The notes under the pieces are model-generated. The model ran no database searches, was not told the origin of the DNA, and saw only the letters and a list, made by a program, of their open reading frames with translations. DNA of 32,882 bases, from the IMG/VR virus record IMGVR_UViG_3300033172_000008; one strand, given 5' to 3'. The position numbers and the translations under genes were made by a program. This stretch comes from a virus. Below are positions 1,665 to 31,867 of this stretch, piece after piece. The stretch's first letter is position 1, and every line of letters begins with the position of its first letter.

Positions 1665-1695
1665 CATATATCCAATTTAGACCAAAAAAGTTCAT
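1665..1695 (-). promoter_or_regulatory. Promoter-like element ATGAACT-N18-TATATG upstream of scaffold/capsid genes
   Basis: Minus strand reads ATGAACT tttttggtctaaattgga TATATG. It has the same architecture as five other sites in the genome. Confidence 0.5.
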
Positions 1696-1696
1696 T

Positions 1697-2179
1697 TTAT
1701 TCAATGTCTAAATTACGAGTCTCTTGAATCCATTTAACTAACTGCTTGTCCGTAGGGTACTTACCAGTCTCAAGCATGTAGTCATCAATAGCCGTTTCAA
1801 TTTGTGAATCGGTAAATGTTGATGGTATATCCGGGTTACTTCGGATGGCAGTCAGCATGGCTCCATTATCTGCATAGAGTCGGAAATTGTTACCCCAAAT
1901 TGGAGTGGGTTGAATAATTTCGCCACCATCAATCCTCGACATCAGGTCACCTCGAATAGCCCTACTAAATTCTTCAGCAACTTCTCTGGATTCGAAAAAT
2001 AACATGTTCATTCCATCATCTGCATACCTTGGAGGAGTGGCACTGACCTGTCCATCGCAGAAGGACTTAGCTCCACCTTTGGAATCCATAAGGTCATCAA
2101 TATCAACCACATCTCCAATGAGGTTTAAATTACGAAAGGATGTGTCGTTCGTAACTGGTTGCAAGTAAACACCATACAT
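1697..2179 (-). CDS. Hypothetical protein (head module)
   Basis: 160-aa ORF whose start/stop overlaps the upstream gene at 2179. No motif recognised. Confidence 0.6.
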   Translation of the reverse strand: MYGVYLQPVTNDTSFRNLNLIGDVVDIDDLMDSKGGAKSFCDGQVSATPPRYADDGMNMLFFESREVAEEFSRAIRGDLMSRIDGGEIIQPTPIWGNNFRLYADNGAMLTAIRSNPDIPSTFTDSQIETAIDDYMLETGKYPTDKQLVKWIQETRNLDIE

Positions 2180-2838
2180 TATTTAACCTTCCTCTGCTGG
2201 GCTATTGTGGCAACCATCTTGGGTCTACCTATTGCATATCTGCGTACATGTTCATACCAGCTATACCGACTGTTGCCGTAGGGGAAGCCAACTATGTGAG
2301 CATCCGGCGCAGTCATTCGTGCAAGGAAGAAGTCGAAGTCTTTACCCATTTGAATTGCCCCTATCAGTTCACGTTCCACTTGTCGGTAGTGTTTCTGGAA
2401 GTGGCCCTTCCATACATCAATTTCTTGGGTAATGGTAATTTCAATGATGGCTTTGTCCTCCTTAGTTAAATTAGACGGGATGGTTTTACCTTCAAGTTCC
2501 CCGTTGAGTTGAGCCAGTTCAATACCCTTCCGATAGAAGTCGTCGAAGTAATCGTATGTCCAGTCAGTAATTGCAGGGAGCAACATGTCCCTACTCTTCC
2601 GGGCCATCAAATTACACAGGGCTTGAATGTCATCCATGGGAGTAAGGGGACTGAGTACGCCCCCTTTGAATCGGAGTGTCTTATAGGCAATCTCGGGCAT
2701 GTCTTTGATAAACCAACGGTCATATGCCATCACAGCCTTGTACATCTTGTCTGCCTTGTAGTTAGGAAGATTGTAGTAGACATCTGAGAAGTCCTTGGCT
2801 AATTTAAGCATCTGACTGCGGTTTAATTTACTCTTCAT
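2179..2838 (-). CDS. Putative minor head / head-morphogenesis protein (position-based)
   Basis: 219-aa ORF overlapping the portal stop by 11 nt. It occupies the classical post-portal position. No catalytic motif recognised. Confidence 0.5.
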   Translation of the reverse strand: MKSKLNRSQMLKLAKDFSDVYYNLPNYKADKMYKAVMAYDRWFIKDMPEIAYKTLRFKGGVLSPLTPMDDIQALCNLMARKSRDMLLPAITDWTYDYFDDFYRKGIELAQLNGELEGKTIPSNLTKEDKAIIEITITQEIDVWKGHFQKHYRQVERELIGAIQMGKDFDFFLARMTAPDAHIVGFPYGNSRYSWYEHVRRYAIGRPKMVATIAQQRKVK

Positions 2839-4318
2839 TTATGCGGCTCCTAAGTTCTTCCAGCTTGGCCCGTTCCTGTATTTCACTTGTTCCGGTGTCC
2901 TCATTGATGCGCTTGATTTCCTCATCAACCATGTTGTCATCCCATGTAGGGTGAAGATGTTTGATGGCATCTCTCTGGCTACGAATTTTGCCCATGACTT
3001 CTCCGGTAAGGGTTTCAGCCACAACCTCTTGAGGAAAGCTGATAGGAGTAAAGTCAATGAAAGCGTTGTCCATAATCTTGTTGATTTCTCTGGGGTCAGG
3101 AGTAGGGTTTAATTTACCCGAGACATCACCATAATAAATCATCTTAGCCAGAAGCTCTTCCATCAGTTCAAGTTCTTGCGGTATAGCACAGTTCTCTTTC
3201 TCCGCTATAAGTTCTTTGGCAGGAGTCATCGCAATTTCAAATGCCCTACCTGAAGAGGCGTCTCCAAGTCCGGTGTTGTCACCCACGGAAACCGAAGGGA
3301 TTCTACTGGTTACATGAAGTTCCTGAATGAGCAGGTTGATGAATTCTTTAAGGTCAGTAATGGAGTGAGCGTTGTTTTCCAATCGCTTCACCCACACATC
3401 ACCATCTGGATTGGCGTTTGAATCAACGTGCCATACTGCACGGGGTTCGTAGGACCAATCAACTTTGCCCACTGCATTGGTTATGACCGGGTTGTGAAGA
3501 CCCCAAATCATAAGTTCTCGGCCATCCGTGAACAACTCATTAACAGACTCTAAGGTGTTAAGTAATGGAAGTATATCAGACTTACCCCATGCATTGAAGG
3601 GGTGGTCGAGACCTCTCCACCACACAGCACCCAGATAATCACCCAGAGGATTCAATCCCTCATAGGGGGTCTTAATTTCCTTGCCATCAACCTTCACATG
3701 GTATTCTCCGGGAACCATAATTTCCCCAGATTGAGAACGCTTGTGTCGGGTAATTTTCTCCTCGAACCTATGCACTGACTTCTTGGGGATGGTATTCAAT
3801 TCCATTACCCAATCTGGCAATTCCTCGGTCAAAATATCAAACACGATTCCATCTATGTGACCATAAGGGTCTTCAGGATTGAAAATTGGTATGACGTCAT
3901 TGAAGCCATAGAGGGCAAATTTATAATTGCCATCCCAAGTACGAATGATTCTTATTACCCCATATCCACAGAGGGAAGCAATCTTGGTCAGACGCATCAT
4001 GACTCCCCGAGCATTCGCATAGGTCTTCTTGATTCTCTCATCCAATTCCGGCACACCATAACTGCGGGTTACTTTCCTGCCATACAATAGAGTAGCAATT
4101 TTATCAACCAACAGTGATGTGAAAGCAATCGGAGTGAAGGCTTCAAGTCTGCCATTGTAAATTCGGTCTGACATCTTGGGTGGTCTGAGAGGGTCAGTTG
4201 TGTTGTCGTACAACTCTTTAAGTTTGATGATGATTTCCCCATGAATAGGAGATTCAGTGTTCACTAACCCCATCAGAGCTTGTGTAACTGTTTGTTCCGT
4301 TGTGTCTTTGTAAAGCAT
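2828..4318 (-). CDS. Portal protein
   Basis: 496 aa, immediately downstream of TerL, with RBS AGGAG 6 nt before the ATG. Size and position are typical of SPP1-type portals. Confidence 0.85.
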   Translation of the reverse strand: MLYKDTTEQTVTQALMGLVNTESPIHGEIIIKLKELYDNTTDPLRPPKMSDRIYNGRLEAFTPIAFTSLLVDKIATLLYGRKVTRSYGVPELDERIKKTYANARGVMMRLTKIASLCGYGVIRIIRTWDGNYKFALYGFNDVIPIFNPEDPYGHIDGIVFDILTEELPDWVMELNTIPKKSVHRFEEKITRHKRSQSGEIMVPGEYHVKVDGKEIKTPYEGLNPLGDYLGAVWWRGLDHPFNAWGKSDILPLLNTLESVNELFTDGRELMIWGLHNPVITNAVGKVDWSYEPRAVWHVDSNANPDGDVWVKRLENNAHSITDLKEFINLLIQELHVTSRIPSVSVGDNTGLGDASSGRAFEIAMTPAKELIAEKENCAIPQELELMEELLAKMIYYGDVSGKLNPTPDPREINKIMDNAFIDFTPISFPQEVVAETLTGEVMGKIRSQRDAIKHLHPTWDDNMVDEEIKRINEDTGTSEIQERAKLEELRSRINEE

Positions 4319-4333
4319 ATTAATCTCCTATTT

Positions 4334-5632
4334 CTATAGGCGTTCCATTGTGTTTCGGCCACTACTTCTTTGTAAATATTCAATCAAATATCGAATAGCA
4401 TCTGCCGGGTGGTCTAATATTCCATCCTTGACATATACTTCTTTCCCCCTCTCGAAGACCAAATTACGAAACATCTCAATGACCTTGGGGCAGTCTTCAG
4501 TAACGAATAGAGAAACCTCTCCCAACTCATTGAGTATTCTCGCTCTCATCAACTGTATACCCGTGACGATGCGGTATCTGCGAGTACTAACAGCATAACC
4601 CCTGTCCATCATCCAAGTAGATTCATTCAACTTAGAAACGAAAGAATGACCAGCATCCCTCCCTATGTCCCTGCGTTGATTTCCTGCCACGTCACTTATA
4701 ATAGCCGTATAACCCTGAGACGGTTCATTCTCGATTAATTTAGCCAACACTTGAGGGGTGCCTTGATGAGCCAGAATATGCTCCTTGTATATTACCATAT
4801 CGTCCGTGACCCTATTGTGGGCTACCCAAACCATAGCGCAGTATTGAGCATATCCGGGGTCAATCGTTAAGTAGACATCCCAAGTTTCGTCTAATTTGAA
4901 ATCCTTAAGGATGTGTTTATTGTCGTCGAAGTCCGGGAACACCTGACCCTCGAACACAACACAATTTGCCATGTACTCCTGTTGGAAGTAGATGGGGTCG
5001 GATTGTCTCTTGACCAACTCCCACTCATCCTCAGTCCACACATGGTAATTTTCATTGGATGGACCCTTGTGGCTCCACCAACCCCCCTCATGCTGTTGTC
5101 CCAATTCAAATTTCTTCCACACCCAGTTACGACCTCGGGGAGTGGAAATCATTATGACTGTACCCCTACGGTCTCTTATACATGGCGAAATGTACATTTC
5201 CCATATCTGTTCTGGCAGGGTTGCGGCTTCGTCTACAATCACCAAATCAAATCCATCACCCAGTAGGGAATCGGGGTTATCCGCTGACCCTAATTCGAGG
5301 GTTGAACCCCAAGCCGTTTCCATTCTCATTTCACCCTTAAGGATGCTGATGTCCGTGCCAAACAATTTAATAACATCTACCAATAGGTAACGCCAAAGCT
5401 TCTTGGCTAATTTGTATGTCTTGCTCACACATAGAATCTTACAGTCGGCTTCCATTAAGGCATAACAGGCCGGAATGGATGCAATCTTTGTCTTACCATA
5501 TCTACGACCCGCCAGCACACAGATGAAACGCTCGTTGCAGAACGCTTCGAGAATCTTGGCTTGACCCGGATGTGGGTGGAAATTAAGCTTCCGTATGAGG
5601 GCTTGCAGGGCTTTCTGGTTCTTCCGTAGCAT
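4334..5632 (-). CDS. terL: Terminase large subunit
   Basis: Walker A-like AGRRYGKT, Walker B plus catalytic Glu LVIVDEAA, and a C-terminal RNaseH-like nuclease segment (YLTIDPGY). 432 aa. Confidence 0.9.
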   Translation of the reverse strand: MLRKNQKALQALIRKLNFHPHPGQAKILEAFCNERFICVLAGRRYGKTKIASIPACYALMEADCKILCVSKTYKLAKKLWRYLLVDVIKLFGTDISILKGEMRMETAWGSTLELGSADNPDSLLGDGFDLVIVDEAATLPEQIWEMYISPCIRDRRGTVIMISTPRGRNWVWKKFELGQQHEGGWWSHKGPSNENYHVWTEDEWELVKRQSDPIYFQQEYMANCVVFEGQVFPDFDDNKHILKDFKLDETWDVYLTIDPGYAQYCAMVWVAHNRVTDDMVIYKEHILAHQGTPQVLAKLIENEPSQGYTAIISDVAGNQRRDIGRDAGHSFVSKLNESTWMMDRGYAVSTRRYRIVTGIQLMRARILNELGEVSLFVTEDCPKVIEMFRNLVFERGKEVYVKDGILDHPADAIRYLIEYLQRSSGRNTMERL

Positions 5633-5825
5633 TGGTACTCTTTCTGTTGGTGACTACTCCCTCGGCAACACGTCCTCCCATTAAGACCAAGGTAATCACA
5701 TACCAGTGTTCTGATGTAACTAAACCAATAAGTAGGAACAAGGTGGCAACTAACCATGCCCAAATTGAATGTCCTATTAATTTGTCAATAATTTTGAATT
5801 TAAACGAATCTCTTTTAATTTGCAT
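5583..5825 (-). CDS. Small membrane protein, two predicted TM helices (holin-like candidate)
   Basis: 80 aa with hydrophobic stretches IWAWLVATLFLLIGLV and WYVITLVLMGG. It overlaps the terL start by 50 nt. Confidence 0.45.
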   Translation of the reverse strand: MQIKRDSFKFKIIDKLIGHSIWAWLVATLFLLIGLVTSEHWYVITLVLMGGRVAEGVVTNRKSTNATEEPESPASPHTEA

Positions 5826-5926
5826 ATTGTTCCCTCTATGGCTTCAATGGTCCGGTCACATGTTTGGATAATACTCTCACGGTCTTCGGGGGTGAGGTCT
5901 AAATTAGAGTTGTTAGATTTTTTCAT
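5777..5926 (-). CDS. Possible 49-aa ORF (MKKSNNSNLDLTPEDRES...)
   Basis: Hand-translated; below the cut-off of the ORF track. Weak RBS (GAGAAG), and it overlaps both neighbouring ORFs. Confidence 0.25.
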   Translation of the reverse strand: MKKSNNSNLDLTPEDRESIIQTCDRTIEAIEGTICKLKEIRLNSKLLTN

Positions 5927-6212
5927 ACTTCTCAACTTTCCTTTTAATTTCCTTTATATCCTCTTTGATGATGGGTAGTATGGTTTCCAGAGTATTAATT
6001 TGAATACTCTGGTTATTAGTTAAGTCATTAAGTTCCTTGAATTTAGATTCAAGGTGAACCCCTTTAGAACAACAATTGTCTCGCATAAGATTACATTCTT
6101 CCTCCATATATTTTAAACGACTGTTAGTGTTGGCAATAAATTTGACCAGACCAAACCCCTGAATAAGGAGAAATACTATTATGGGCCACATGCTAAGTAG
6201 TGTGTCAAGCAT
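5913..6212 (-). CDS. N-terminally membrane-anchored coiled-coil protein (holin/spanin-like candidate)
   Basis: 99 aa. N-terminal hydrophobic helix (WPIIVFLLIQGFGLV) followed by a charged coiled-coil-like tail. RBS AGGTG. Confidence 0.6.
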   Translation of the reverse strand: MLDTLLSMWPIIVFLLIQGFGLVKFIANTNSRLKYMEEECNLMRDNCCSKGVHLESKFKELNDLTNNQSIQINTLETILPIIKEDIKEIKRKVEKYEKI

Positions 6213-6251
6213 TATACACCTATCTAATTTTGGAGTAAATTACGAAGTTTC

Positions 6252-7202
6252 TCAGACGACCCATTCAATTGTAACTCTCTGTAGTTTACTGAGGTCGGCT
6301 GAGTCCAATATTCTAATTCTACCTGTTCCTGTAGACGCTCCATCATATTTAGTTCCACTCGTGCCAGTTTCACCGTTGGCTTTGGCGATTACAAACTCAT
6401 CAGCGTCTAAACCTTCGACTGTTACGGTAATGTCAGCATCGGTTTGTTCTTTCCATGTGAGAACATCAATAGGTGTGGAATCAGATACAACACACTCGAC
6501 TCGATAGGTAATGGTTCCATCGTTGGTGTAAATTACAAAGTCACCTGTGTAAGTTCCTGCTGTTCCAGTATTTGTGAGATTGACAGTTACTTGACCACTT
6601 GCCCCGGATGCCAACGAAGTGGGGAATGCGGTGTAGGTAAACCCAGTAGGGGCAGTAACCCTATAGATATTCAAAGCAGTTGGTCCATCATTTTCAATTT
6701 GTATTGTACCGAATGAACTCTCCCCAACATATATGGTACCCAAATTTAGACCTATAACAGCTTCGGGCTCTCCGGCAATGAGGTTCTGTATCTCATATTC
6801 AAAAGTCTGTGAAACTGAATAGATATTACTCTCATCAGGCCCAGTGTATGTTTCGCCTACCCACATGGGGGTCCTACGAATAGAACCATAGAGGGTTGAC
6901 CTGAGTAAATTAGATTTGCTTAAATGACCATAGGAGAGCAAGGTTTCGTGGACGGAACCCATCTTGGCAGTACTGTCAAGGTTAATGGTGACATCCACCT
7001 GCATCTTATCAACATACGCACTTCCGGTTTCGTAAGTTAGGACATCATTCACTACAGATATATTCACCCATGAAGTCCCGGCATTTGCGGGTCTCCAAAA
7101 CTGATTCCCCGCTGGCACTATGTTGATGACTGTGGGGAAGCCAGATATGGACCCCAAATAGGTCTGCATGTTGGTCATCAAATCCCATTGTGGATTAGGC
7201 AC
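6252..7202 (-). CDS. Structural protein: tail-terminator-like N-domain fused to Ig-like C-terminal domain(s)
   Basis: 316 aa with a GTG start and GGAGG 5 nt upstream. The N-terminal ~140 aa resemble the tail-terminator/DUF4128-like pattern. The C-terminal Thr/Gly-rich beta-type segment (SGASGQVTVNLTNTGTAGTYTGDF) is typical of Ig-like/ASH-type domains. Confidence 0.55.
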   Translation of the reverse strand: MPNPQWDLMTNMQTYLGSISGFPTVINIVPAGNQFWRPANAGTSWVNISVVNDVLTYETGSAYVDKMQVDVTINLDSTAKMGSVHETLLSYGHLSKSNLLRSTLYGSIRRTPMWVGETYTGPDESNIYSVSQTFEYEIQNLIAGEPEAVIGLNLGTIYVGESSFGTIQIENDGPTALNIYRVTAPTGFTYTAFPTSLASGASGQVTVNLTNTGTAGTYTGDFVIYTNDGTITYRVECVVSDSTPIDVLTWKEQTDADITVTVEGLDADEFVIAKANGETGTSGTKYDGASTGTGRIRILDSADLSKLQRVTIEWVV

Positions 7203-7225
7203 CGTGAACCTCCGTTATAAAGAAC

Positions 7226-7301
7226 TGGTGGAGATGGTGGCAATCGAAGCCACGACATCCTGCTTGCAAAACAGGTACTCTTCCAACTGAGTTACATCCC
7301 C
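7226..7301 (-). tRNA. tRNA-Ala (anticodon UGC), CCA encoded
   Basis: Hand-folded cloverleaf: acceptor GGGGATG/CATCTCC with a G3:U70 pair and A73; D arm ACTC-AGTTGGAA-GAGT; anticodon arm CCTGT-TTTGCAA-GCAGG; variable loop ATGTC; T arm GTGGC-TTCGATT-GCCAC; then ACCA. 76 nt. Confidence 0.88.
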
Positions 7302-7388
7302 ACATATTGTTGGGGGTCGGTCGGTAAGTAAACCAACCCCCCAGTATAATTTAGACATCAATTGTAATTTAATTTCTCTATTAACATG

Positions 7389-8141
7389 TTATTCTTCCTT
7401 GTCTTCGTCTGTGGTCGTGTTAAGGTTCCATGGGTCTTCATCGTTGATTCGGTCAAGTAGTTCCGTCAAAGGACTCTTTTCTTTGTTAAATTGTATGGTA
7501 TCTACTTTACCGAAGTCATTAGGGAATCGTCGTTCCAAAATAAACATTGTGCTGCGCGCTCGGGCTGATTCATTGTTGCCCTCAATTGCCAATTTGTTCA
7601 GGTTGTCAATCATCTTCATCTTGTATTCATGTTCGGCCAAGTCAGCCATTTCCTGAAGTTCAGGTAATTTAGCCAAGGTTTTAATCAATGTTTCATGCTT
7701 GCATTTGATGGCTCGGGTTACGTCTCTCATGCGTCCACCATTACTTAGTACCTCCACCATTGTAGGTACCCACTTACGATAGTTGTATGCTAAATTAAAC
7801 ATGTTTAAATTACCCGTTTTAATACCCATTAATTTGTTAAGGTATATTCTCCTATTGTAATCTTTCAGATTCATGGTAGGCTCTTTCAACCATTTCCATT
7901 CCAAATATCTGTATTCATCCTGAAGGTCAATCAATTTGTCCCGACCTAATTTATCATAGTTACGTAACCAAGCTTTCTTACTCCACCGAATAGTGCCCTT
8001 GATTATATTGACATCTTCCATAGGGATTGCCCACGGACCTTCTAAAGCAATACCTATCCACTCGATGCAACCCATTTGGTCGGGATTTTTACCATAGTGT
8101 ACAGCCGGGTCTTCTTCACATTCAAATCTCTTAATTTCCAT
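7389..8141 (-). CDS. Putative small terminase subunit / DNA-binding protein
   Basis: 250 aa. The C-terminal half has an HTH-like stretch (GGRMRDVTRAIKCKHETLIKTL) and the FILERRFPNDFGK motif common near the C-terminus of small terminases. Strong RBS GGAGG. Confidence 0.45.
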   Translation of the reverse strand: MEIKRFECEEDPAVHYGKNPDQMGCIEWIGIALEGPWAIPMEDVNIIKGTIRWSKKAWLRNYDKLGRDKLIDLQDEYRYLEWKWLKEPTMNLKDYNRRIYLNKLMGIKTGNLNMFNLAYNYRKWVPTMVEVLSNGGRMRDVTRAIKCKHETLIKTLAKLPELQEMADLAEHEYKMKMIDNLNKLAIEGNNESARARSTMFILERRFPNDFGKVDTIQFNKEKSPLTELLDRINDEDPWNLNTTTDEDKEE

Positions 8142-8166
8142 ATACAGACACCTCCGTATCTATTGT

Positions 8167-8197
8167 ATTATATCCATTTCAGTTGATTTTAGTTCAT
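8167..8197 (-). promoter_or_regulatory. Promoter-like element ATGAACT-N18-TATAAT upstream of the TerS-like gene
   Basis: Minus strand reads ATGAACT aaaatcaactgaaatgga TATAAT. The -10 ends 25 nt before the ATG at 8141. Confidence 0.55.
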
Positions 8198-8199
8198 TT

Positions 8200-8239
8200 G
8201 TAAATTAGACCTCAAGGTTTAATTTGAGGTCTAATTTAC
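8200..8239. repeat. Perfect 16-bp inverted repeat carrying the genome-wide AAATTAGACC word
   Basis: GTAAATTAGACCTCAA (8200-8215), loop ggtttaat, TTGAGGTCTAATTTAC (8224-8239). It abuts the -35 of the 8167-8197 promoter. Confidence 0.9.
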
Positions 8240-8262
8240 CTAACATGTTGGTGTGGTCTAAT

Positions 8263-8559
8263 TTATGAGCCTTTCACTTTTGCAATGTCAAATATCAAGT
8301 TGGGTGTGGGGAGATTACCAATAGGTAACCGATGCAAAGTGTAGGCCAATTTGCCAAAAAACACTTTAGCATGCCATTGAGCCGCAGATAAATTAGCCTC
8401 AGCCACTACAGGACTGGCACCCCTACCTCTACCTACTACTGGTTTCCAAGCTGACCCTACTAATTTACATAGGGTGAATCGAGGATTGCCATCACTGTCG
8501 GAAAGTAAAATTAGACCAAAGATGTCTTTGGCGGTGATTGCGAACTGTCTGTATTCCAT
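8263..8559 (-). CDS. Hypothetical protein
   Basis: 98-aa ORF in an operon context. No motif recognised. Confidence 0.5.
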   Translation of the reverse strand: MEYRQFAITAKDIFGLILLSDSDGNPRFTLCKLVGSAWKPVVGRGRGASPVVAEANLSAAQWHAKVFFGKLAYTLHRLPIGNLPTPNLIFDIAKVKGS

Positions 8560-8570
8560 ATCCAGTCTCC

Positions 8571-9104
8571 TTAAATTAGGTTTTCTCTAAGCATGTCATG
8601 AGTCACAGCCGGTATATAGTCTTCCGTTGTCAATTTACACCAACCCAAGGCACTCAACCAATCCTTGTTAATCAATACAAATTTAGAGCTGAAGTAGTCC
8701 CCTCCACTATTGAACTCATATGTCTCACTTGATGGATTCTTTTCGGTAAGTATTTGATGCATAAGGTCTTTCATCTTCCATGTAGAATAAATTGCACAGG
8801 TCTTCATGATGTGGATAGTGACATCAGCCCTACTCTTCATAATGCCTGAACTCTTGCCATTCATTTCATATTCCACGCAGATGTAATTTGAATCTTCATA
8901 TTTGAATTCCCTCTTCAATTCCACTGACACAATAGGACTTACCCATCCTTCATCGTGCTTGTATTGCATGGCCCAATCATATCTGCTTCGTCTGTCCCCG
9001 TCCAGAATTGACCAACCAAAAATTTTAAACGCTTGTACCGTAAGCTTTTGGATTGCTTGACCCCTTGCAAAATCTTCTCCGAATGTCTTGAATAGGTTAG
9101 CCAT
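8571..9104 (-). CDS. Hypothetical protein, possible PD-(D/E)xK nuclease fold
   Basis: Start trimmed to the ATG at 9104, 2 nt after the sigma stop. D...E-x-K-like pattern (ILDGD ... VSVELKRE). The functional call is weak. Confidence 0.5.
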   Translation of the reverse strand: MANLFKTFGEDFARGQAIQKLTVQAFKIFGWSILDGDRRSRYDWAMQYKHDEGWVSPIVSVELKREFKYEDSNYICVEYEMNGKSSGIMKSRADVTIHIMKTCAIYSTWKMKDLMHQILTEKNPSSETYEFNSGGDYFSSKFVLINKDWLSALGWCKLTTEDYIPAVTHDMLRENLI

Positions 9105-9573: not shown

Positions 9574-10266
9574 TTAGACCTCCTCAGGGGTTTCCACAAA
9601 GTTAATGTGGGAGTAACGCTGTTTCAACCACTCTTCATATGGAGTCATTTCGGGGTGATTGTATCTAACGGAATATTCGACCATCATCTGTGTGAGTTCT
9701 TCCTGCATACGGTCAATTTTGTCACATATAACCTTACGAGCATCAGCATCATGTTGAGCCTGTAGGAGTAGTAGGTCTAATTTACTCTGTAGAGATGTGG
9801 TCTCTTCTTTAATGTCCTTGAAGATTTTATCCATTCCATCTTCATCTTCTTCTAAAGAGGACAACATATCCAAGGTGGTTACTACTTTGGTCCAATCCTC
9901 ATTGAGCATGAGGAGGTAAAGATAAATCAACTGGGTTCTGTGGGCCGCAATGGTTCTACGCCCTATTGAGTTGTTGTACATAGTTTCAAATAAACCTAAA
10001 TCGGACAGAGTAATAAGGCCATTATCTACCATTACACCATTACCAACCAACTTAACATTTAATTCTTCGGAATTAAGGAAGGCATTTACCAGCATCAGGG
10101 TGTTCTCTTGCTCTAACCGGGTAAGCAATGCATCTTCGAGTTCATCCACCAACGCAATGGTCTCAAACTCAATGTCAATTCTGTCTGTCTTTTCCATAGG
10201 TGTTACTCCATTTTCTGTTTTGTGTTCACTGTTAAAGGTTTCTTGTTCCATCATCTGCTTCTTCAT
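9574..10266 (-). CDS. Acidic hypothetical protein, first gene of the leftward operon
   Basis: 230 aa, strongly Asp/Glu-rich. RBS AAAGGAG. Its stop lies 2 nt before the sigma start. Confidence 0.65.
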   Translation of the reverse strand: MKKQMMEQETFNSEHKTENGVTPMEKTDRIDIEFETIALVDELEDALLTRLEQENTLMLVNAFLNSEELNVKLVGNGVMVDNGLITLSDLGLFETMYNNSIGRRTIAAHRTQLIYLYLLMLNEDWTKVVTTLDMLSSLEEDEDGMDKIFKDIKEETTSLQSKLDLLLLQAQHDADARKVICDKIDRMQEELTQMMVEYSVRYNHPEMTPYEEWLKQRYSHINFVETPEEV

Positions 10267-10518
10267 AATCAGGCTCCTTTGGGTTAATATTTCTCGGTCA
10301 CATATATCTATATCATTTCAAAACTTTTTGGTGACGATTTCGGGGTCTCTTCTTCAAACCAGTTTCAACATTTTCGTCTCTCTATACTCTATATCAAAAT
10401 TTGAACGAGGGGTGCCATATTTGAGGTGTCCTACTTAAACAACAAACGAAACAGAGAAAATGTTTATGTCCCCACACCTATATAACAAGGTAGTAGGGGT
10501 GAAATATTCCGGGGTAAT

Positions 10519-10538
10519 TTAGACCTCTGTGAACCTTG
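10519..10538 (+). repeat. 20-mer TTAGACCTCTGTGAACCTTG, copy 1
   Basis: Identical to 10658-10677. Followed by a second CTGTGAACC at 10542-10550. Confidence 0.9.
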
Positions 10539-10657
10539 TATCTGTGAACCCATCTACTTCAAACCGGGTGGAGTGAAGCAATGTGGTCACAATCTGAAGA
10601 GACCTCGGAACCCTCGGAGATGTGCAACAAATAGTAGTCTATATATGTGGCATCAAA

Positions 10658-10677
10658 TTAGACCTCTGTGAACCTTG
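10658..10677 (+). repeat. 20-mer TTAGACCTCTGTGAACCTTG, copy 2
   Basis: Identical to 10519-10538. Confidence 0.9.
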
Positions 10678-10716
10678 GGGGAGATGCAAGAGAAATAGGG
10701 TCAAATTTCTTACCGC

Positions 10717-10732
10717 TGTGAAAAGATTCACA
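10717..10732. promoter_or_regulatory. CRP/FNR-type palindrome TGTGA-N6-TCACA
   Basis: TGTGAAAAGATTCACA, a perfect match to both half-sites. Confidence 0.5.
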
Positions 10733-10868
10733 AGGAAAATCAAACACTTGTTTGAAAGTTCGTTTCATAAGAATGAGGTGTAATTTGTAAGTTGTTGGGG
10801 CCGTATATAACTATAATTTGAAACCTCGACATATAGTATTATTAAGCTACTACACAGAGATTGAGTGT

Positions 10869-10884: not shown

Positions 10885-11434
10885 GAGTTTACCCCCATTT
10901 GTATTGACATAGGTGAATCAATAATAGGACAAATTAGACCGAGCTGGCCCTATCTGGCTCTTGATTATAACGCCTTTAGGCGTTGAGAACCCTATGGTCT
11001 TTTGCGACCGAAGGGAGCCCTCTTCATAGGAGGTTCACATAGAGTAAATTACACCTCACTTGCCTTCGCCTACGGCTCGGCTGGAAATAGGGTAAAGTTA
11101 TATTAAACATATAACATTTGGGGTCTGGAATCCACTCATTCTTCTTCATAGGGTAATGGGAGGGGAAACCCCCATAGGGTCAGTTTCATGACCTTTCAAT
11201 GTTGTATTTACATTCATTACATTTTCATCTTCATTACTCCATTCTATCTTCATCTTGATTTATGGGAGACCCCGAAAGGGATTCTTGGTGGAGGTGCCGT
11301 ATTAACACTATACTTAAATGTATTTAAGGGTATTAGTATATATTCGGGGTGTGGAAGTTGTTGGTACCTATGGAGAAAAAAGAGGTGACCATAGACTAAT
11401 GACCTATGTGAAATTTGCATACTGGTCAAGTTGG

Positions 11435-11452: not shown

Positions 11453-11479
11453 GCCCTATAGATTGTCACGCAATGTGAG

Positions 11480-11497: not shown

Positions 11498-11516
11498 AGG
11501 GGTAGATTATTACACA

Positions 11517-11571: not shown

Positions 11572-11970
11572 ATGAAATATGAAATTCACTCTGATGATGT
11601 ACTCCGGACTTTGGCTCACAAAATGGTCTCCGAATTAACCGAGATGTCCTATTCCATAAACTACATTCGGAAGTTGATGACGTGGGGTGGTCTAATTTAC
11701 GCCACAGAACTTTTAGGTGATGACAGACTGGGTGAATTCAAGGAGGTGTGGTTCCAATTCCTGAATCGTTGGACGGATGAATACCACATAGATATATACT
11801 GTAGGCTGAAGAAACTTGGCAGGGTCCGCTCCTACTCGGATGCAAGTGACTACTTCGATTTCCTGCCTAATTTTGACCAAGCATTGTTTGCCCTATCGGA
11901 GCTAATTCAAGGGGAGACTTCGTTTTGCAGGTGGAGGAATAGCCTACTTGACAATAGAAAGAAAAAGTAG
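11572..11970 (+). CDS. Hypothetical protein (first rightward gene)
   Basis: 132-aa ORF with RBS AAAGG. No motif recognised. Confidence 0.6.
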   Translation: MKYEIHSDDVLRTLAHKMVSELTEMSYSINYIRKLMTWGGLIYATELLGDDRLGEFKEVWFQFLNRWTDEYHIDIYCRLKKLGRVRSYSDASDYFDFLPNFDQALFALSELIQGETSFCRWRNSLLDNRKKK

Positions 11971-13943: not shown

Positions 13944-14252
13944 ATGGTTATGATTGATAAATTAGACCCCCAGACTTGGGCCGAGAACGCAGTGCAGGTT
14001 ATAGCTTTGAGTATAAAGCAAGGCATGGATAAGAAAGGATTAACGGGTCACATTGAGTTATACATCAACACCACACTGGCTGAAGAAGCTGGATTGAAAA
14101 TAGGACATGTTATTGGTGGATACCCTATTACGAGAATTGAGAGAGATTGTCAGACAGAAATTCGTCGGTTGTGGGTGGCCGGATATTGCATTGCAAGTGA
14201 TGGACAACCCTATGGATTAGCCTTTGCAAATGAACATTGTTGGGGGGAGTAG
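13944..14252 (+). CDS. Hypothetical protein
   Basis: 102 aa. The GGGAG RBS favours either the ATG at 13944 or the one at 13950. Confidence 0.6.
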   Translation: MVMIDKLDPQTWAENAVQVIALSIKQGMDKKGLTGHIELYINTTLAEEAGLKIGHVIGGYPITRIERDCQTEIRRLWVAGYCIASDGQPYGLAFANEHCWGE

Positions 14253-14254: not shown

Positions 14255-14464
14255 ATGAAAATTAGACCTTACTTTGCTACAGAAAATACATTGAGAGAGT
14301 TAGTTGGTCAGGTTAATTTGACCAACCAACTCCTCAATGAAATAAGGCAGATGTTAGCAGATAAGAAAACACAAATTACACCTGAACAATTAATACAACA
14401 GCACGGGCTATGGGCTAAACAACGTGTGTTCACGACAGAATTAACCTCTTGGGAAAGGGAGTAA
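14255..14464 (+). CDS. Hypothetical protein
   Basis: 69 aa from the ATG at 14255, preceded by GGGGGAG. Confidence 0.55.
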   Translation: MKIRPYFATENTLRELVGQVNLTNQLLNEIRQMLADKKTQITPEQLIQQHGLWAKQRVFTTELTSWERE

Positions 14465-18260: not shown

Positions 18261-18689
18261 ATGAAGAAGATTGCTGGAACAAACGTGGTATGGGGAAGCC
18301 TGATAGGATTGGTTGTCATATTCCTACTGGCTGTTGTGTGTGGTTGTGGAAACCCAACCGAACCTGCTGTCCCCTATGTTGTGGAAATTGAAATTTGGGG
18401 TAATGAACCGGACGACCTCTATCTGCTTGAGATGAACTTCTACGAAGAGTGGGGTTCAATAGGTTGGATTTGTGGATTCGATGACTACTACGCATCCCTT
18501 CCATATACCTACACTACAACAGTATATGATGCCCATCGTTGTGTTATCCGTATGGTAGGTAGTAGTACTCCATGGAATGAAATTCAATATACCGCCCTCA
18601 TCAATGGGGAGGAACCTGAGACTATGAATGTGGGAGAAGTTACATATCCATCAGGTACAAGGTATATTGTAGTTTCAATTAATTGGTAA
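18261..18689 (+). CDS. Putative lipoprotein / signal-anchored protein (moron)
   Basis: 142 aa. N-terminal signal peptide with a Cys-containing lipobox-like VVCGCG. It has its own promoter and terminator. Confidence 0.6.
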   Translation: MKKIAGTNVVWGSLIGLVVIFLLAVVCGCGNPTEPAVPYVVEIEIWGNEPDDLYLLEMNFYEEWGSIGWICGFDDYYASLPYTYTTTVYDAHRCVIRMVGSSTPWNEIQYTALINGEEPETMNVGEVTYPSGTRYIVVSINW

Positions 18690-18708
18690 ATTAGACCTCT
18701 GTGAAATG

Positions 18709-25035: not shown

Positions 25036-25296
25036 TTATTTAGTCCTATCTGCCATTCGTTCTTTCATCTTGAATTGGGAAGCCCTATTGCTGGCATTCT
25101 TGTACACCGTAATCGCCTCATCAACCCACATAGGTGCCGTTACTAAATTTAGACCAAGCTGGCCTGTCTCCCACCATGAAGTCATTTTAGCCACCTGTAC
25201 CGCGAAAGGGGAAATTAGAACCTTGGGACAACCACCTACTGCTTCGGCCTTGAAAATTACAGGCATCTGATTAGGGAGGTGGGATTCTGCAATCAT
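25036..25296 (-). CDS. Tail assembly chaperone, T-like ORF (probably expressed as a frameshift extension)
   Basis: 86-aa ORF in the -1 frame relative to 25302-25727. That frame stays open for 45 codons upstream of its ATG, and its own RBS is poor. Confidence 0.5.
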   Translation of the reverse strand: MIAESHLPNQMPVIFKAEAVGGCPKVLISPFAVQVAKMTSWWETGQLGLNLVTAPMWVDEAITVYKNASNRASQFKMKERMADRTK

Positions 25297-28420: not shown

Positions 28421-29178
28421 TACCTCTCCAAAAAGGTTGTGTATCCAGCAACTCGTCTGGACTTGGAATCTCTTTCAGGGTAACAACTAATTTGCCATTG
28501 CTGGCCTACTTTATAGGAGTCAATGTATTTGTAGAGGAATCTAATTTCAACACCAAAGCTGAGAGGTATGAAGTTCCAGTCACATTTGACATTCTCTCTA
28601 TACCATCCTTCATCCTCGTCCGTCTTCCAGCGAAAAGTGGAGGTTGCTAAATTAGACCCTACTGTTTGAAGTTCAATGGTGAAGATTCGGGGGTACAGGT
28701 CTTCGGTGTAGTAGCAACCCGGCACTCCATAGTTGGATTCAATCCACTCCGAATTTGGAGTAATGGCCTCTGTTCCAGTCCCTACGGTAAGGGCAGTAGG
28801 CATACCAATTCCAATTTGTCCCACAGTCGGTTCAGGGTCAATTCGTCTGCGCCCTGATTTGAAATCTTCAAGAATGCCCTCGGCATCGGTATGGAAGACT
28901 GTCCAGTAACCTTCGGCTCCCTCTTTGTTTGCCAGCATCCTCCGAGACAACGCCAGATATACGGCTTCACTTGCCGTGGCTAAACGAATAAAGAAGTTGG
29001 GGGAGGTGCCAGTGGCAGGTAGGGACAATGATGGAGTAGGGTTGAACTCACAGATGGATGTATACACCCACTCGGAAGCTTGTTCCAGAATGGAATCCAA
29101 TATGGCTCCACTGGCTAAAGCGGAAAAGTCTTCGTAAAGCACCTCACAATCTGTGATGCCAATGAATTTTCTCGCCAT
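28420..29178 (-). CDS. Head-tail adaptor-like protein with C-terminal extension
   Basis: 252 aa. The N-terminus (ITDCEVLYEDF...LEQASEWV) resembles gp6-type connector proteins. First gene after the GT cassette. Confidence 0.5.
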   Translation of the reverse strand: MARKFIGITDCEVLYEDFSALASGAILDSILEQASEWVYTSICEFNPTPSLSLPATGTSPNFFIRLATASEAVYLALSRRMLANKEGAEGYWTVFHTDAEGILEDFKSGRRRIDPEPTVGQIGIGMPTALTVGTGTEAITPNSEWIESNYGVPGCYYTEDLYPRIFTIELQTVGSNLATSTFRWKTDEDEGWYRENVKCDWNFIPLSFGVEIRFLYKYIDSYKVGQQWQISCYPERDSKSRRVAGYTTFLER

Positions 29179-29191
29179 GTTTTACCTCTGA

Positions 29192-29887
29192 TTAAATGTT
29201 TTCTAAGATGGTTTTTATTAGGGATGTATACTTACGGTGAAAAGTCTGTTGGTCTAATTTGAACGTAAGCTCATCACGTTTCTTCTCTTCACTTATAAAT
29301 ATACAATTCTCCGTGAAAAGGTTCATCTTCTCCGGGGCAAAGAACCCAAGACCATGGTCAAGACCTACTTCAAACCCAGCCCAACGACATCTCAGAGTAT
29401 AATCAGTGAGAATGAAGAACTCCTTCAAGGCTGTGTCGAACTGACCCACATCCAATAAGGCTCGATAGGGTACTGAAATCATGTTGTGGTCAAAACAATT
29501 TACAGGTCTTATGGCATCACTCTGGTGGTAACCACTGGCATACTTGATGATGGGGAATCCTGATTGAATTTCGGCTGTCAATTCCACGGACTGATTAACC
29601 CTATCCATGAGGGTAGGGGAAATTACCATATCTTGATTCAACTGTTCAACATGTCTCTCGAAATCGAAGCAAGCAGTGTTGGGAATGAACCCAGCCCTGA
29701 CCACCATGAGGTTGGCCTTTTCGTCCAGACAAATTTCCCTACACAAGTTAAAGGCATCAGACATTTTACCGCTATAGGCAAGGATGTTCAACATGTCTTC
29801 AGATACTATTTCCTTCATGGCTTCAAAGGTCTGATTGGCCTTTTCATCCTCGATGGAATTCTTGATGATGAATATTTTAGTGTGCAT
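29192..29887 (-). CDS. GT-A/GT2-like glycosyltransferase (divergent)
   Basis: 231 aa from the ATG at 29887, which overlaps the GT9 stop. The C-terminal segment YRALLDVGQFD...TDYTLRCRWAGFEV matches the usual GT2 C-terminal pattern. Confidence 0.45.
   Translation of the reverse strand: MHTKIFIIKNSIEDEKANQTFEAMKEIVSEDMLNILAYSGKMSDAFNLCREICLDEKANLMVVRAGFIPNTACFDFERHVEQLNQDMVISPTLMDRVNQSVELTAEIQSGFPIIKYASGYHQSDAIRPVNCFDHNMISVPYRALLDVGQFDTALKEFFILTDYTLRCRWAGFEVGLDHGLGFFAPEKMNLFTENCIFISEEKKRDELTFKLDQQTFHRKYTSLIKTILENI
29296..29326 (-). promoter_or_regulatory. Weaker intragenic ATGAACC-N18-TATTTA element upstream of the connector/tail genes
   Basis: Minus strand reads ATGAACC ttttcacggagaattgta TATTTA. 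It lies 117 nt upstream of the ATG at 29178. Confidence 0.3.
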
Positions 29888-31133
29888 CAGTCTCACCTTT
29901 CAACCAACTGTAATTTGCGGTTAAGACATCCACTAAATCAATGGACGCTGTGCAATAGGGTATTTCCATCCTAAGGGATTCTAATTTCTGGAAAGCATTA
30001 TTTACCTTCGCATTAAGGGTGGCCTCCGATGTACACTTAAAATAGGTGATTGGGTCTTTGGTAGGGAGAGGCTTCACAGGAGGAAGTCCAGCTTGCGCCC
30101 TAACCATGGGTTCCATAGGGAGCATCTCCAACAACTGTCTTTCCTCAGGGTCTAATTTAGACCAAGCTTCAACCTGCTTACGAGGACAGTCCCTTGTAAT
30201 TTGGTAGCACTTACATACCTGATTACCCAATGTAACTTGCGAATCTACGGTGATTTCATATCGGTAATACTTGGATATGGTGTGTGCCGGGACAAAGGTG
30301 TAATAGGTTATGTGTCTTATGCCCAGAGCTTCAGCCAAGTGAGACACTCCGGTATCGGCAGTAATGGCAAATTGGCACTGTTCCAGCAGAGCCGCAGTAG
30401 CCCTAATAGGTTTGATTTCCTTGGGGATTTCAATTTTCATCCCATTGATGGTCAAGAAACCACCACCTTGAGGTCTCTCTTGAGTGGGAACTTCCTGATT
30501 CCAAAGTAGAATACTGTGTCCCTTTTCAATGAGGAATCTGCTTATACCTAAGGGGGAGATGGTCTTAGCTGCACTGGAAGATGTGGTCTGGATAAACACA
30601 GGCTTGGTTCTGCACTTACTCAATATGGATTTAGCCCAAGCTCTTTCCTCTTCCCTCACGAAATAGTTGGGTCTCTTCTCATCATCCGACATGGTGTAAG
30701 GGTTAATTCCAGCCCAATTTAGATGGTTGTCATAGGTGTTGATGTAAGTGGAATTCTGAGTAGGACTAATTTCCGGGTGCTGAGTGTTTGCCTCGATGAC
30801 GCGGAAGTAGTTCGCGACATTAAAGGGTCGCCAAGGTCGGTTTAATTTAGTTTTATAGAGTCGGTACAATGCCATGTCAGCAATGTATACACCTTGATAG
30901 TCAACCAAATTAATGGGATGTCCATTAACATCAGCTTTGTATGTGCCGAATCTTGAACTTAAGTAGATGTGCTTGATGTAAGGGTTGTTCTCCAACACAG
31001 GCAAGCCCATGTCATTTACCACTACATCAACCTGATAGCCTAATTCAGTCAGCTTCTTTGCCACTGGGGTGAGGAATAAAGCATCGCCTATTCCACCATA
31101 TCGAAGCAGTAGGAACCTTTCTTTGGAAGCCAT
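29877..31133 (-). CDS. GT9-family heptosyltransferase-like glycosyltransferase with Cys-rich C-terminal extension
   Basis: 418 aa. N-terminal LLLRYGGIGDALFLTPVAKKL and TADTGVSHLAEALGI are the hallmark GT9 (WaaC/WaaF-type) motifs. There is an extra CKCYQITRDC cluster. Confidence 0.75.
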   Translation of the reverse strand: MASKERFLLLRYGGIGDALFLTPVAKKLTELGYQVDVVVNDMGLPVLENNPYIKHIYLSSRFGTYKADVNGHPINLVDYQGVYIADMALYRLYKTKLNRPWRPFNVANYFRVIEANTQHPEISPTQNSTYINTYDNHLNWAGINPYTMSDDEKRPNYFVREEERAWAKSILSKCRTKPVFIQTTSSSAAKTISPLGISRFLIEKGHSILLWNQEVPTQERPQGGGFLTINGMKIEIPKEIKPIRATAALLEQCQFAITADTGVSHLAEALGIRHITYYTFVPAHTISKYYRYEITVDSQVTLGNQVCKCYQITRDCPRKQVEAWSKLDPEERQLLEMLPMEPMVRAQAGLPPVKPLPTKDPITYFKCTSEATLNAKVNNAFQKLESLRMEIPYCTASIDLVDVLTANYSWLKGETDAH

Positions 31134-31867
31134 TATATTTCTCCTTTTTCTCTTTGACTAATCAAGGTTTGGACACTCTTGTCTCGATGAACTCCGGGAC
31201 CGTAGCACATACCATCCCTCATGGTTGCACTCTTACGGTCTGATTCTTTGGTCTTACGATGTTCCATGTACATTTCTTCATTAAGGTAAGCCCATGGAGC
31301 TAAAGGATTTGGGTGTCTGTGGGGGACATTCTCGAATACCAACACCGGACCCAAAGCAATTCTAAATTGCCAATCCCTACCCAGAGGGTCATCCGGGGAT
31401 TTGTATAGGTCTACAATTTCCTCAGCATCCCAGAAGTTCTTGCGGTGAATCATCAATGCTCTAACATCAAAGGTGCGAAGCATTTCGTTGGCCTTCTTAT
31501 TCACCTTGCGGAAAATAGGTTCACTCACAAACTCATCAACATCAATCCTGAACAACCACTCCTGAGGTCTAATTTGATACAGCATGTTGTAGTGTGGCTC
31601 ACCCAACCGTTCAAATCTTTCCATGGAGATGTAATTTACATTCTTATAGGAACGAGCAATCTCTTGCGTTCTATCTGTGGATGCTTGGTCTATCAGATAA
31701 ATTTTTGCATATTTATGAAATTCAAGCCAAGCAGGTAGGCGTTCTTCCTCGTTGTAAACCACAATCCCAATGCTCATGGGGAATTCTTTTAACACATTGT
31801 TTTTGACCGTGGACTGCTTGGTAGCAGGTATTTTGGGTCTTCCTTTTTTATTGGACTTAGTAGACAT
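31133..31867 (-). CDS. GT2-family glycosyltransferase
   Basis: 244 aa from the ATG at 31867, with GGGAG 5 nt upstream. Motifs SIGIVVYNEEERL, LIDQASTDRTQEIA and RIDVDEF (DxD). Confidence 0.7.
   Translation of the reverse strand: MSTKSNKKGRPKIPATKQSTVKNNVLKEFPMSIGIVVYNEEERLPAWLEFHKYAKIYLIDQASTDRTQEIARSYKNVNYISMERFERLGEPHYNMLYQIRPQEWLFRIDVDEFVSEPIFRKVNKKANEMLRTFDVRALMIHRKNFWDAEEIVDLYKSPDDPLGRDWQFRIALGPVLVFENVPHRHPNPLAPWAYLNEEMYMEHRKTKESDRKSATMRDGMCYGPGVHRDKSVQTLISQREKGEI

Follow-up and report, generated by a model that had tools for sequence, protein, structure and literature searches.

A short DNA word repeated across the genome of a tailed phage from a lineage without cultured relatives

The question raised by the IMG/VR virus record IMGVR_UViG_3300033172_000008 is why a tailed phage should keep dozens of copies of one short DNA word, AAATTAGACC and its near variants, dispersed through its genome. 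The window, by which we mean the complete stretch of 32,882 nucleotides that was analysed, begins with a perfect copy of its own end (bases 1-127 equal 32756-32882). This 127-nt terminal direct repeat arises from overlap in the assembly of a genome that is circular or terminally redundant and has a true length of 32,755 bp, and no site of the word falls within the repeat. The same contig (32,896 bp with the k-mer overlap) was assembled in 18 samples as a free circle of identical length, and one of these samples is JGI 3300033170 from an anaerobic digester in Wageningen (PMC10159854). Few phages are known in which a single short word is maintained in dozens of copies genome-wide. The clear cases are stoperators, nick sites and uptake sequences, and for two of the three the purpose is under debate. 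The feature described here belongs to this small class of dispersed phage recognition words and fits no described family. It is unusual in having one site per 650 bp, mostly inside genes and on both strands, and also in showing visible selection at synonymous positions, a TAG-to-TAC compromise and a lineage that lacks cultured relatives.

There are 16 exact copies of AAATTAGACC in the window, nine on the plus strand and seven on the minus strand. An earlier note, made from the sequence alone, listed 15 of these at correct coordinates and overlooked the plus-strand copy at 8508. Its positions for the variant AATTTAGACC / GGTCTAAATT were all found again (1674, 6743, 10516, 25146 and 30154 on the plus strand, 5896 and 18140 on the minus strand; seven copies). 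For the core TTAGACC the exact total is 27 rather than 24, compared with 4.2 expected. AAATTAGACC is expected 0.13 times in dinucleotide shuffles, none of which has more than 2 copies, and 0.22 times under an order-3 Markov model, such that the 16 and 7 exact copies of AAATTAGACC and AATTTAGACC stand against roughly 0.2 each. This amounts to 488 exact copies per Mb, and to 702 when the W (A or T) variant is included.

One possibility is that the word is a functionless by-product of intrinsic terminators or other hairpins, of a repeated peptide, of codon bias or of the remnants of mobile repeats. The peptide K-L-D does recur among the copies, and the frames and peptides that had been assigned to them (KLD, IRP, SNL and GL(N/I)) are correct. 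In addition, GGTCTAATTT looks like the end of a stem with a T-rich tail behind it, a consensus scan flags four to five hairpins of this kind, and many hairpin pairs in unrelated genomes are terminators. However, when codons are permuted among positions encoding the same amino acid, which preserves all proteins and the codon pool, AAATTAGACC is found 6.4 times on average and 11 times at most, compared with the 16 copies observed. Six non-coding or edge copies persist in these shuffles, whereas only about 0.4 of the 10 coding copies reappear, and an independent-codon model predicts 0.07 coding copies. Because the coding copies drop from 10 to about 0.4, peptides and codon usage do not explain the word. 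The similar counts in codon-preserving shuffles that the earlier note had named as fatal to its reading thus did not appear. Copies are present in every frame that does not create a stop codon, and on both strands. The predicted folding energy beside the sites is no different from that at random positions (-5.37 versus -5.30 kcal/mol, p=0.40), and only the pair at 8202 and 8228 and the palindromes described below fold as stem-loops. There are also no conserved flanks that would mark a mobile element, and the sites are better conserved than the sequences around them. We therefore give this explanation hardly any credence.

Iterative refinement of a position weight matrix (PWM) expands the word to y-A-A-W-T-T-A-(G>C,A)-A-C-C-(t/a)-(c/a), a motif of 11-12 nt. 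There are 50 sites that score at least 13 bits, compared with 1.7 in order-3 Markov sequences. At the threshold of at least 11 bits, which defines the site list used below, there are 51 sites compared with about 5 expected genome-wide, and 23 of the 51 are exact AAWTTAGACC. The PWM flanks carry no information at any other position within 45 nt on either side, and the site is therefore compact and self-contained, with no partner element. It is also asymmetric, as the left flank shows no tendency toward GGTC outside four overlapping inverted pairs, and a fully palindromic motif was rejected except for these four pairs. The exact sites comprise 14 on the plus strand and nine on the minus strand. 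Two of the overlapping pairs are perfect 15-bp palindromes of the form GGTCTAAWTTAGACC, located at 18140 and 30149, and the other two are partial. Eight sites have such an overlapping inverted partner, compared with 0.75 expected by chance. The AAWTT centre is self-complementary, which makes a second site cheap to gain if selection favours site number. Where the reading frame would turn TAG into a stop codon, six of seven sites carry TAC instead, whereas G is present in 33 of the 44 sites elsewhere (p=8e-5). Degeneracy at position 7 is thus largely a coding compromise.

There is only one close relative in the protein database, the 33.5-kb Logan contig SRR15669518_210544, whose portal protein is 96% identical. 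It was recovered as L028 and L421 and aligns over 29.8 kb of the window at 87.8% nucleotide identity. Nineteen of the 23 exact AAWTTAGACC sites are still exact in this relative, compared with 7.4 expected from local divergence. Identity is 94.6% in the site cores and 87.7% elsewhere (p=1e-6), and at third codon positions it is 91.1% inside sites and 76.9% elsewhere (p=1.6e-4). The A and T forms of the centre are interchanged between the two genomes at three retained sites, and the site at 18688 is kept despite a local identity of only 73%. Conversely, the scored sites of the relative are located at window site positions in 30 of 31 and 22 of 23 cases in its two overlapping halves, and the position-matched sites include degenerate variants such as AAATTAAACC and AATTTACACC. 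Degenerate sites of the late-1 block (1705..8641) are found at the same position in 11 of 12 cases, the exception being 8632. Those of the early region recur in four of nine cases (11046, 11694, 11869, where the relative has the stronger AATTTAGACC, and 16911), and those of the tail and late-2 region in four of seven (25623, 26232, 30839 and 31628). Two window variants, at 4888 and 11869, are nearer to the consensus in the relative. This comparison shows that the word is under purifying selection and that the sites are functional DNA elements rather than a frozen accident. The selection extends to each of the three reading frames, to either strand and to the DNA between genes. The earlier proposal that the constraint acts on the DNA and not on a peptide is upheld by the synonymous shuffles, the codon model, the conservation in the relative and the TAG/TAC pattern.

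The location of the sites can be read against the gene map of this tailed phage, which is organised in two transcription blocks. The late block starts at 10266 and is oriented leftward, crosses the circle junction and ends at 18756. Its first part includes genes for an acidic protein, an ECF-like sigma factor (9107-9571), a nuclease-like protein, terS (7389-8141), a tRNA-Ala, terL, portal and capsid, and it continues past the junction with HNH, glycosyltransferase, head-tail and tail genes. The early block is oriented rightward and spans positions from about 11572 to 18689. Between these divergent operons is a 1.3-kb leader (10267-11571) in which no gene is called. There are 12 of the 51 sites in the 7.8% of the DNA that is non-coding (p=4e-4), an enrichment of 3- to 4.5-fold. 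The other 39 are intragenic, and 15 of the 23 exact sites are in coding sequences. Four sites (8202+, 8216-, 8228-, 8255-) are crowded into the 121-bp gap before terS (8142..8262), which is just downstream of the sigma-factor gene, and the sites at 8202 and 8228 can pair as a stem of about 12-14 bp (-16 kcal/mol). Five more, four of them in sense orientation, are found in the early leader, and another non-coding site is at the end of the early operon beside a convergent terminator. The TAA of the motif serves as the stop codon of a gene at two sites (8255 and 18688), and 17 of the 51 sites are no more than 60 nt from a stop codon, compared with 8.6 expected. The clustering between 8.2 and 14.3 kb and the scarcity in the tail genes that had been noticed by eye are both genuine, as the tail block (18.7-28.4 kb) holds only six of the 51 sites where 15 would be expected (p=0.007).

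The early leader also carries two perfect TGTGAA-N4-TTCACA palindromes (10717-10732 and 10869-10884), which have the shape of CRP/FNR or Rex operators. A sub-family of sites, AAWTTAsACC-TCTGTGAA, is represented at 10516, 10655, 16911 and 18688, always in sense orientation and always in the early block. The half-site ACCTCTGTGAA of the leader palindromes abuts the motif at 10516, 10655 and 18688, and this junction suggests that a second regulator acts beside the reader of the motif. The leader could also house an origin of replication or a non-coding RNA.

The presence of a phage-encoded, two-domain sigma factor of the ECF type raises the possibility that the word is a promoter element (a -10-like TAAATT followed by AGACC) used by this protein, in the manner of the late promoters of T4. 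Those promoters (TATAAATA) are likewise a short AT-rich word with many copies, some of them inside upstream genes, and T4-like use would accord with the sigma factor encoded here. Two sense copies closely precede terS, where the structural operon begins, and sense sites outnumber antisense sites by 36 to 15. However, this bias is marginal, since the ratio within coding sequences (28:11) compares with 1.4:1 predicted from codon statistics (p=0.055). Unlike T4 late promoters, the sites are not consistently in sense orientation, they occur at far higher density, and 14 sense sites are in the early operon. A -35-like partner at a distance of 16-18 nt is missing (the best match averages 2.49, versus 2.50 at random), and no position within 45 nt on either side is conserved. 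A central A/T swap and a G-to-C change are both tolerated, and a spacing of one site per 650 bp is much too close for promoters. Moreover, two of five motif-free relatives (L419 and L420) encode a homologous sigma factor and lack a repeated word. These observations make a promoter function highly improbable. Sigma-70-like promoters were rejected separately, as matches to them are no commoner than in shuffled sequences, and ECF-type promoter spacing was rejected by eye and by information content.

The explanation we favour, tentatively and at a strength that falls short of probable, is that the approximately 50 sites form a genome-wide set for one sequence-specific protein that binds duplex DNA, wherein the clustered sites are operators and the intragenic sites are roadblocks or a reservoir. 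Of the three roles suggested in the earlier note, such a binding-site network is still the best fit, whereas nick sites are disfavoured by the use of both strands and by the palindromic pairs. Duplex recognition would fit the occurrence on both strands, the tolerated A/T swap, the strict TAGACC / ACC, the clusters in control regions and the overlapping inverted copies. Perhaps the reader binds as a monomer or via two sub-sites, wherein the A/T-swappable AAWTT tract is read by groove shape and TAGACC is read by base contacts. An A/T swap within an A-tract would preserve the narrow minor groove, and overlapping inverted copies might permit double occupancy. The clustered non-coding sites might then be operators that time early and late transcription. 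The intragenic sites might act as roadblocks or silencers, or as a reservoir that holds the protein on phage DNA, as in the stoperators of Cluster A mycobacteriophages.

There are several candidate readers encoded by lineage-specific genes, namely 8263-8559, 8571-9104, 9574-10266, 11572-11970, 12066-12542, the SAP-motif gene 17719-18192 and the HNH gene 31944-32642, and a host protein is also a possible reader. Many proteins are lineage-specific, and therefore co-occurrence singles out no reader. Single-sequence AlphaFold models of the products of 8263-8559 and 11572-11970 are too poor for use (predicted local distance difference test scores of 44 and 58). A number of observations weigh against a regulatory network of this kind. 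No repressor-like protein was found in Pfam, PHROG and PDB sequence searches, the last of which gave no matches, and gene calling together with the Pfam and PHROG searches recognised no integrase and no lysogeny module that would require silencing of the whole genome, in a genome where many small open reading frames (ORFs) lack annotation. Intragenic sites make up about three quarters of the total and antisense sites about 30%, unlike in characterised operator and stoperator networks. The depletion in tail genes is without obvious regulatory rationale, and a word imposed by the host would give most of the same statistics.

The closest working analogy is the stoperators of Cluster A mycobacteriophages (L5, Bxb1 and TipsytheTRex), although the word is not a member of that family. 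Those genomes carry more than 20 asymmetric 13-mers genome-wide besides the copies at promoters, the word being lineage-specific, and the repressor that reads them is a monomeric, two-domain protein that blocks both initiation and elongation (PMC9283540, PMC6550527). The sites described here, 23 exact and about 50 by PWM, resemble stoperators in count and density, asymmetry, clustering in control regions and lineage specificity. In contrast, stoperators are located in promoters and short intergenic gaps, whereas here 39 of 51 sites are intragenic and 12 are non-coding. Stoperators are also nearly all oriented one way relative to transcription, whereas here some 30% are antisense and there are overlapping inverted pairs. 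The stoperator word is 13-14 nt compared with 11-12 nt, and phages with stoperators are temperate with a known repressor, whereas the Pfam, PHROG and PDB sequence searches found no repressor, integrase or parABS system in this genome. If the reader is a phage protein, stoperator-like occupancy would be extended to an apparently lytic phage and to coding DNA, and the compact protein-site pair would be of use for engineering.

A different purpose, which we consider rather unlikely, is that the word is a virus-borne 'self tag', part of a phage system that tells phage DNA from host DNA and not a transcription network. Tagged DNA might be spared from a phage or host nuclease, in a Chi-like manner, or the sites might serve to load the entire genome with a protein for protection, condensation or packaging. 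Such a tag would be the counterpart, in a phage, of uptake or Chi sequences.

It is also conceivable that the sites are nicked or chemically modified by a phage enzyme, such as a zinc-ribbon HNH protein, on virion or replicating DNA. The nick sites of T5, tf and phiKMV-like phages have a consensus of 7-20 nt in 4-14 copies, some of which are intragenic, and their purpose is still unexplained (PMC3517423). In phage tf, a 9-nt nick consensus is repeated 14 times over 46 kb (PMC3517423), and zinc-ribbon HNH enzymes of phages are site- and strand-specific nickases with a specificity of 3-7 bp (PMC3592412). The word shares with these systems a conserved consensus that is repeated also inside genes, and an HNH nuclease is encoded here. 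One such gene, adjacent to the capsid gene (31944-32642), is common to both motif-bearing genomes and was not found in stretches of about 20 kb from five motif-free relatives. The genes for the sugar kinase and the glycosyltransferases could in principle have a part in modifying DNA, but no base-modifying enzyme was recognised among the window proteins. Against nicking, the sites of tf, T5 and phiKMV-like phages are all on one strand (PMC3517423), whereas the exact sites here are on both (14 and nine), with palindromic overlaps and 3-10 times more sites in total. Nicks on both strands at the two perfect and two partial palindromes, and at the 8202/8228 pair, would amount to double-strand breaks.

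The earlier note had regarded two zinc-ribbon HNH proteins as obvious readers of the word, and we find no specific support for this. HNH-1 (15149-16054), a protein with three zinc-ribbon repeats, is a member of phrog_374, an HNH family that is very widespread in phages and common in those without the word. It is a recent mobile insertion, present only in the window, between a 38-codon ORF and the kinase gene, and it is missing from the 88%-identical relative that keeps the sites. There is no motif at the insertion junction in the uninserted allele (L421 9873-10010), and a link to the homing site of this enzyme was rejected for this reason. The single HNH gene of the relative, at the capsid-adjacent locus, is a mosaic of the two copies in the window (62% and 81% identity). 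Gene 12624-12977 is also specific to the window. Overall, we regard nicking or modification as improbable, with modification that leaves the strands intact still conceivable.

The distribution of the word among relatives and in databases bears on whether it could originate from the host. There are no cultured relatives closer than 23% capsid identity (Vibrio phages) by megablast and tblastn searches of 50,697 phage records, and IMG/VR offers only terminase relatives at 25-30% identity, all of which lack the word. Neither the word nor a comparably over-represented 8-mer or 10-mer is present in five relatives with 36-57% portal identity and 49-59% GC. The word is thus specific to the lineage of the window and L028, or to the host of that lineage. 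One of the five, the distant relative L418 (ENA ERZ27252296; portal 50% identical, GC 57%), comes from the same digester sample as the window phage and is entirely without the word. A search of IMG/VR with the 19-mer TAAATTAGACCTCTGTGAA gave no match, and a direct-pair scan of the same collection gave 28 loci, all of them local repeats. A scan of genome contigs for AAATTAGACC-N(0-30)-GGTCTAATTT revealed no dispersed copies in any genome among the matches listed. A metagenome direct-pair scan gave tandem iteron arrays, again with no dispersed copies among the matches listed.

Perhaps the word was imposed by the host and has built up in the phage, whether as an uptake sequence, as a Chi-like regulator of a nuclease or as some other self-mark. 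In that case its reader would be host machinery, and the word would be dense throughout the host chromosome. Uptake signal sequences (USS) and DNA uptake sequences (DUS) in phages of Pasteurellaceae and Neisseria are 9-12 nt long, asymmetric and present at hundreds per Mb (PMC6776037, PMC2346458). The density of 488-702 per Mb falls within the range of 100 to about 750 USS per Mb in Pasteurellaceae phages (PMC6776037). With USS and DUS the word shares its asymmetry, its length of 10-12 nt, its occurrence on both strands and within genes in preferred frames, and the enrichment of its one-off variants. It also forms inverted pairs, one of which is an intergenic hairpin, and more of its sites than expected are close to stop codons. 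Slow accumulation would be consistent with the sparseness of sites in the tail module, which is more divergent, and the relatives of other GC content, which probably have other hosts, lack the word.

By definition, a USS or DUS is also present, at comparable or higher density, across the chromosome of a naturally competent host. The host-oriented scans revealed no genome with dispersed enrichment among the matches listed. Uptake-sequence drive requires a prophage stage, but no integrase or lysogeny gene was found, and the genome is a free circle in 18 samples. USS-rich phages are temperate, and lytic Pasteurellaceae phages are USS-poor (PMC6776037). The four to five copies clustered in each of two control regions look regulatory. 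Known Chi sites are 5-8 nt long and G-rich, which also argues against a Chi-like role. To our knowledge, the word is unrelated to any USS or DUS dialect. We consider a host origin unlikely, but with a larger share of the probability than the other alternatives to a binding-site network. If the word does belong to the host, it would be a previously unknown signal, uptake-like or Chi-like, of a bacterium from anaerobic digesters, and would permit direct host assignment for uncultured phages.

Table 1. Sites of the word in the window and their state in the close relative. Degenerate sites (one-off or degenerate PWM matches) are listed by the start of the 10-mer.
Feature	Position	Strand	Form	Context	Close relative
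motif representation			GTAAATTAGACCTC		
exact	1674..1683	+	AATTTAGACC	intergenic gap 1603-1696	kept
exact	5896..5905	-	AATTTAGACC	sense, small ORF 5777-5926	AAATTAGACC (W swap)
exact	6743..6752	+	AATTTAGACC	antisense in 6252-7202	lost
exact	8202..8211	+	AAATTAGACC	5' arm of hairpin 8202-8237	1-nt deletion
exact	8228..8237	-	AAATTAGACC	3' arm of hairpin, sense, 87 nt upstream of terS start	kept
exact	8255..8264	-		TAA is stop codon of gene 8263-8559	kept
exact	8508..8517	+	AAATTAGACC	antisense in 8263-8559	lost
exact	9774..9783	-		sense, S-K-L-D-L in 9574-10266	kept
exact	10516..10525	+	AATTTAGACC	early leader, followed by TCTGTGAA	AAATTAGACC
exact	10655..10664	+		early leader, followed by TCTGTGAA	AATTTAGACC
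exact	10931..10940	+		early leader	kept
exact	11689..11698	-		antisense in 11572-11970; overlaps weaker + site 11694	kept
exact	13959..13968	+		9 nt into gene 13950-14252 (D-K-L-D-P)	kept, local identity 85%
exact	14259..14268	+		4 nt into gene 14255-14464 (M-K-I-R-P)	kept, local identity 80%
palindrome, perfect 15 bp	18140..18154	18140-, 18145+ (exact)	GGTCTAAATTAGACC	SAP-motif gene 17719-18192	both kept
exact	18688..18697	+		TAA is stop of last early gene; followed by TCTGTGAA and convergent terminator 18708-18739	kept
exact	25146..25155	+	AATTTAGACC	antisense in 25036-25296	kept
exact	28649..28658	+		antisense in 28420-29178 (G-S-N-L-A)	kept
exact	29251..29260	-		sense, F-K-L-D-Q in 29192-29887	AAATTTGACC, exact form lost
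palindrome, perfect 15 bp	30149..30163	30149-, 30154+ (exact)	GGTCTAATTTAGACC	GT9 gene (W-S-K-L-D-P)	both kept
exact	31566..31575	-		sense, Q-I-R-P-Q in 31133-31867	kept
degenerate	1705	-	AATTTAGACA	late-1 block	
degenerate	2122	-	AATTTAAACC	late-1 block	
degenerate	2820	-	AAATTAAACC	late-1 block	
degenerate	3106	-	AAATTAAACC	late-1 block	
degenerate	3913	-	AAATTTGCCC	late-1 block	
degenerate	4411	-	ATATTAGACC	late-1 block	
degenerate	4888	-	AAATTAGACG	late-1 block	
degenerate	5575	-	AATTTCCACC	late-1 block	
degenerate	6525	-	AATTTACACC	late-1 block	
degenerate	7348	+	AATTTAGACA	late-1 block	
degenerate	8216	-	AAATTAAACC	late-1 block	
degenerate	8632	+	AATTTACACC	late-1 block	
degenerate	10777	-	AAATTACACC	early leader/genes	
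degenerate	11046	+	AAATTACACC	early leader/genes	
degenerate	11694	+	AATTTACGCC	early leader/genes	
degenerate	11869	+	AATTTTGACC	early leader/genes	
degenerate	12427	+	AAATTAAACC	early leader/genes	
degenerate	13477	+	AAATTAGACG	early genes	
degenerate	16198	-	AATTTAGAGC	early genes	
degenerate	16203	+	AAATTTAACC	early genes	
degenerate	16911	+	AAATTACACC	early genes, followed by TCTGTGGA	
degenerate	18921	-	AATTTCCACC	tail/late-2	
degenerate	23295	+	AAATTATACC	tail/late-2	
degenerate	25454	+	AAATTTGACC	tail/late-2	
degenerate	25623	-	AATTTACACC	tail/late-2	
degenerate	26232	-	AATTTGGACC	tail/late-2	
degenerate	30839	-	AAATTAAACC	tail/late-2	
degenerate	31628	-	AAATTACATC	tail/late-2	

The database scans also returned other repeats. 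The scan of genome contigs gave, among the matches listed, bidirectional-terminator hairpins, a hairpin of the Candidate Phyla Radiation (CPR), a 43-nt hairpin and an element resembling repetitive extragenic palindromic (REP) sequences. The hairpin TTCAGCGT-AAATTAGACC-N(about 22)-GGTCTAATTT-CCGAAGCA is found in several metagenome-assembled genomes (MAGs) of Staskawiczbacteria, Saccharibacteria and Taylorbacteria, sometimes on several contigs of one MAG (loci L033, L036, L040, L086, L103, L121, L142, L080 and L061), and looks like a CPR-specific structured element. A near-identical, perfect 43-nt hairpin, AAATTAGACCTGACAGGTTTTGAAAACCTGTCAGGTCTAATTT, is present in MAGs of Cytophagales, Saprospiraceae and Ardenticatenaceae (L043, L057, L125 and L138), and this distribution across phyla suggests a mobile element or a shared terminator cassette. 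The Gemmatimonadota MAG CAYOLL01 (L048, L110 and L144) carries the REP-like hairpin GAAATTAGACCTTGYAACT-GCAT-RAGTTRCAAGGTCTAATTTC, with six copies of the 10-mer in one 8-kb stretch. These copies are all intergenic hairpins, unlike the dispersed single sites of the phage.

Among the pattern scans of IMG/VR, one match reproduced the peptide AWSKLDP, encoded by the same codons, in an unrelated viral contig (L292). The palindrome matches include four IMG/VR loci (L225, L231, L249 and L258) with seven to eight TTTAGACCA sites within about 650 bp, including the palindrome TGGTCTAAWTTAGACCA. These clusters are always located immediately downstream of a Tn916-like tyrosine integrase gene and are probably arm-type or end sites of an integrative element, unrelated to the phage.

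A tRNA-Ala gene (anticodon TGC) is located at 7226-7301 on the minus strand, between a DUF1573/Ig-like gene and terS (Rfam 64.8 bits; also found by ARAGORN), and it is the sole match in an Rfam search of the window. A heptose-type sugar module is divided over the early and late blocks (14468-15004, 16051-17031, 29877-31133 and 31133-31867). Its members are an RfaE/HldE-like heptose-7-phosphate kinase (PfkB), a GT9 heptosyltransferase-like protein, a GT2 protein and another GT-like protein. The kinase is at most 39% identical to any bacterial protein and yields no host call, and GT2 and GT9 are kept beside the capsid gene in all relatives. The target of this module could be a virion protein, lipopolysaccharide or DNA.

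There is, finally, a second repeat family in the window, a 53-nt element whose two copies (11987-12039 and 12545-12597) are 94% identical and occupy the gaps that precede genes 12066 and 12624. Oppositely oriented partial copies are found at 10292-10315 and 10379-10400, just upstream of the first late gene. This element is likely a shared promoter or 5' untranslated region element.

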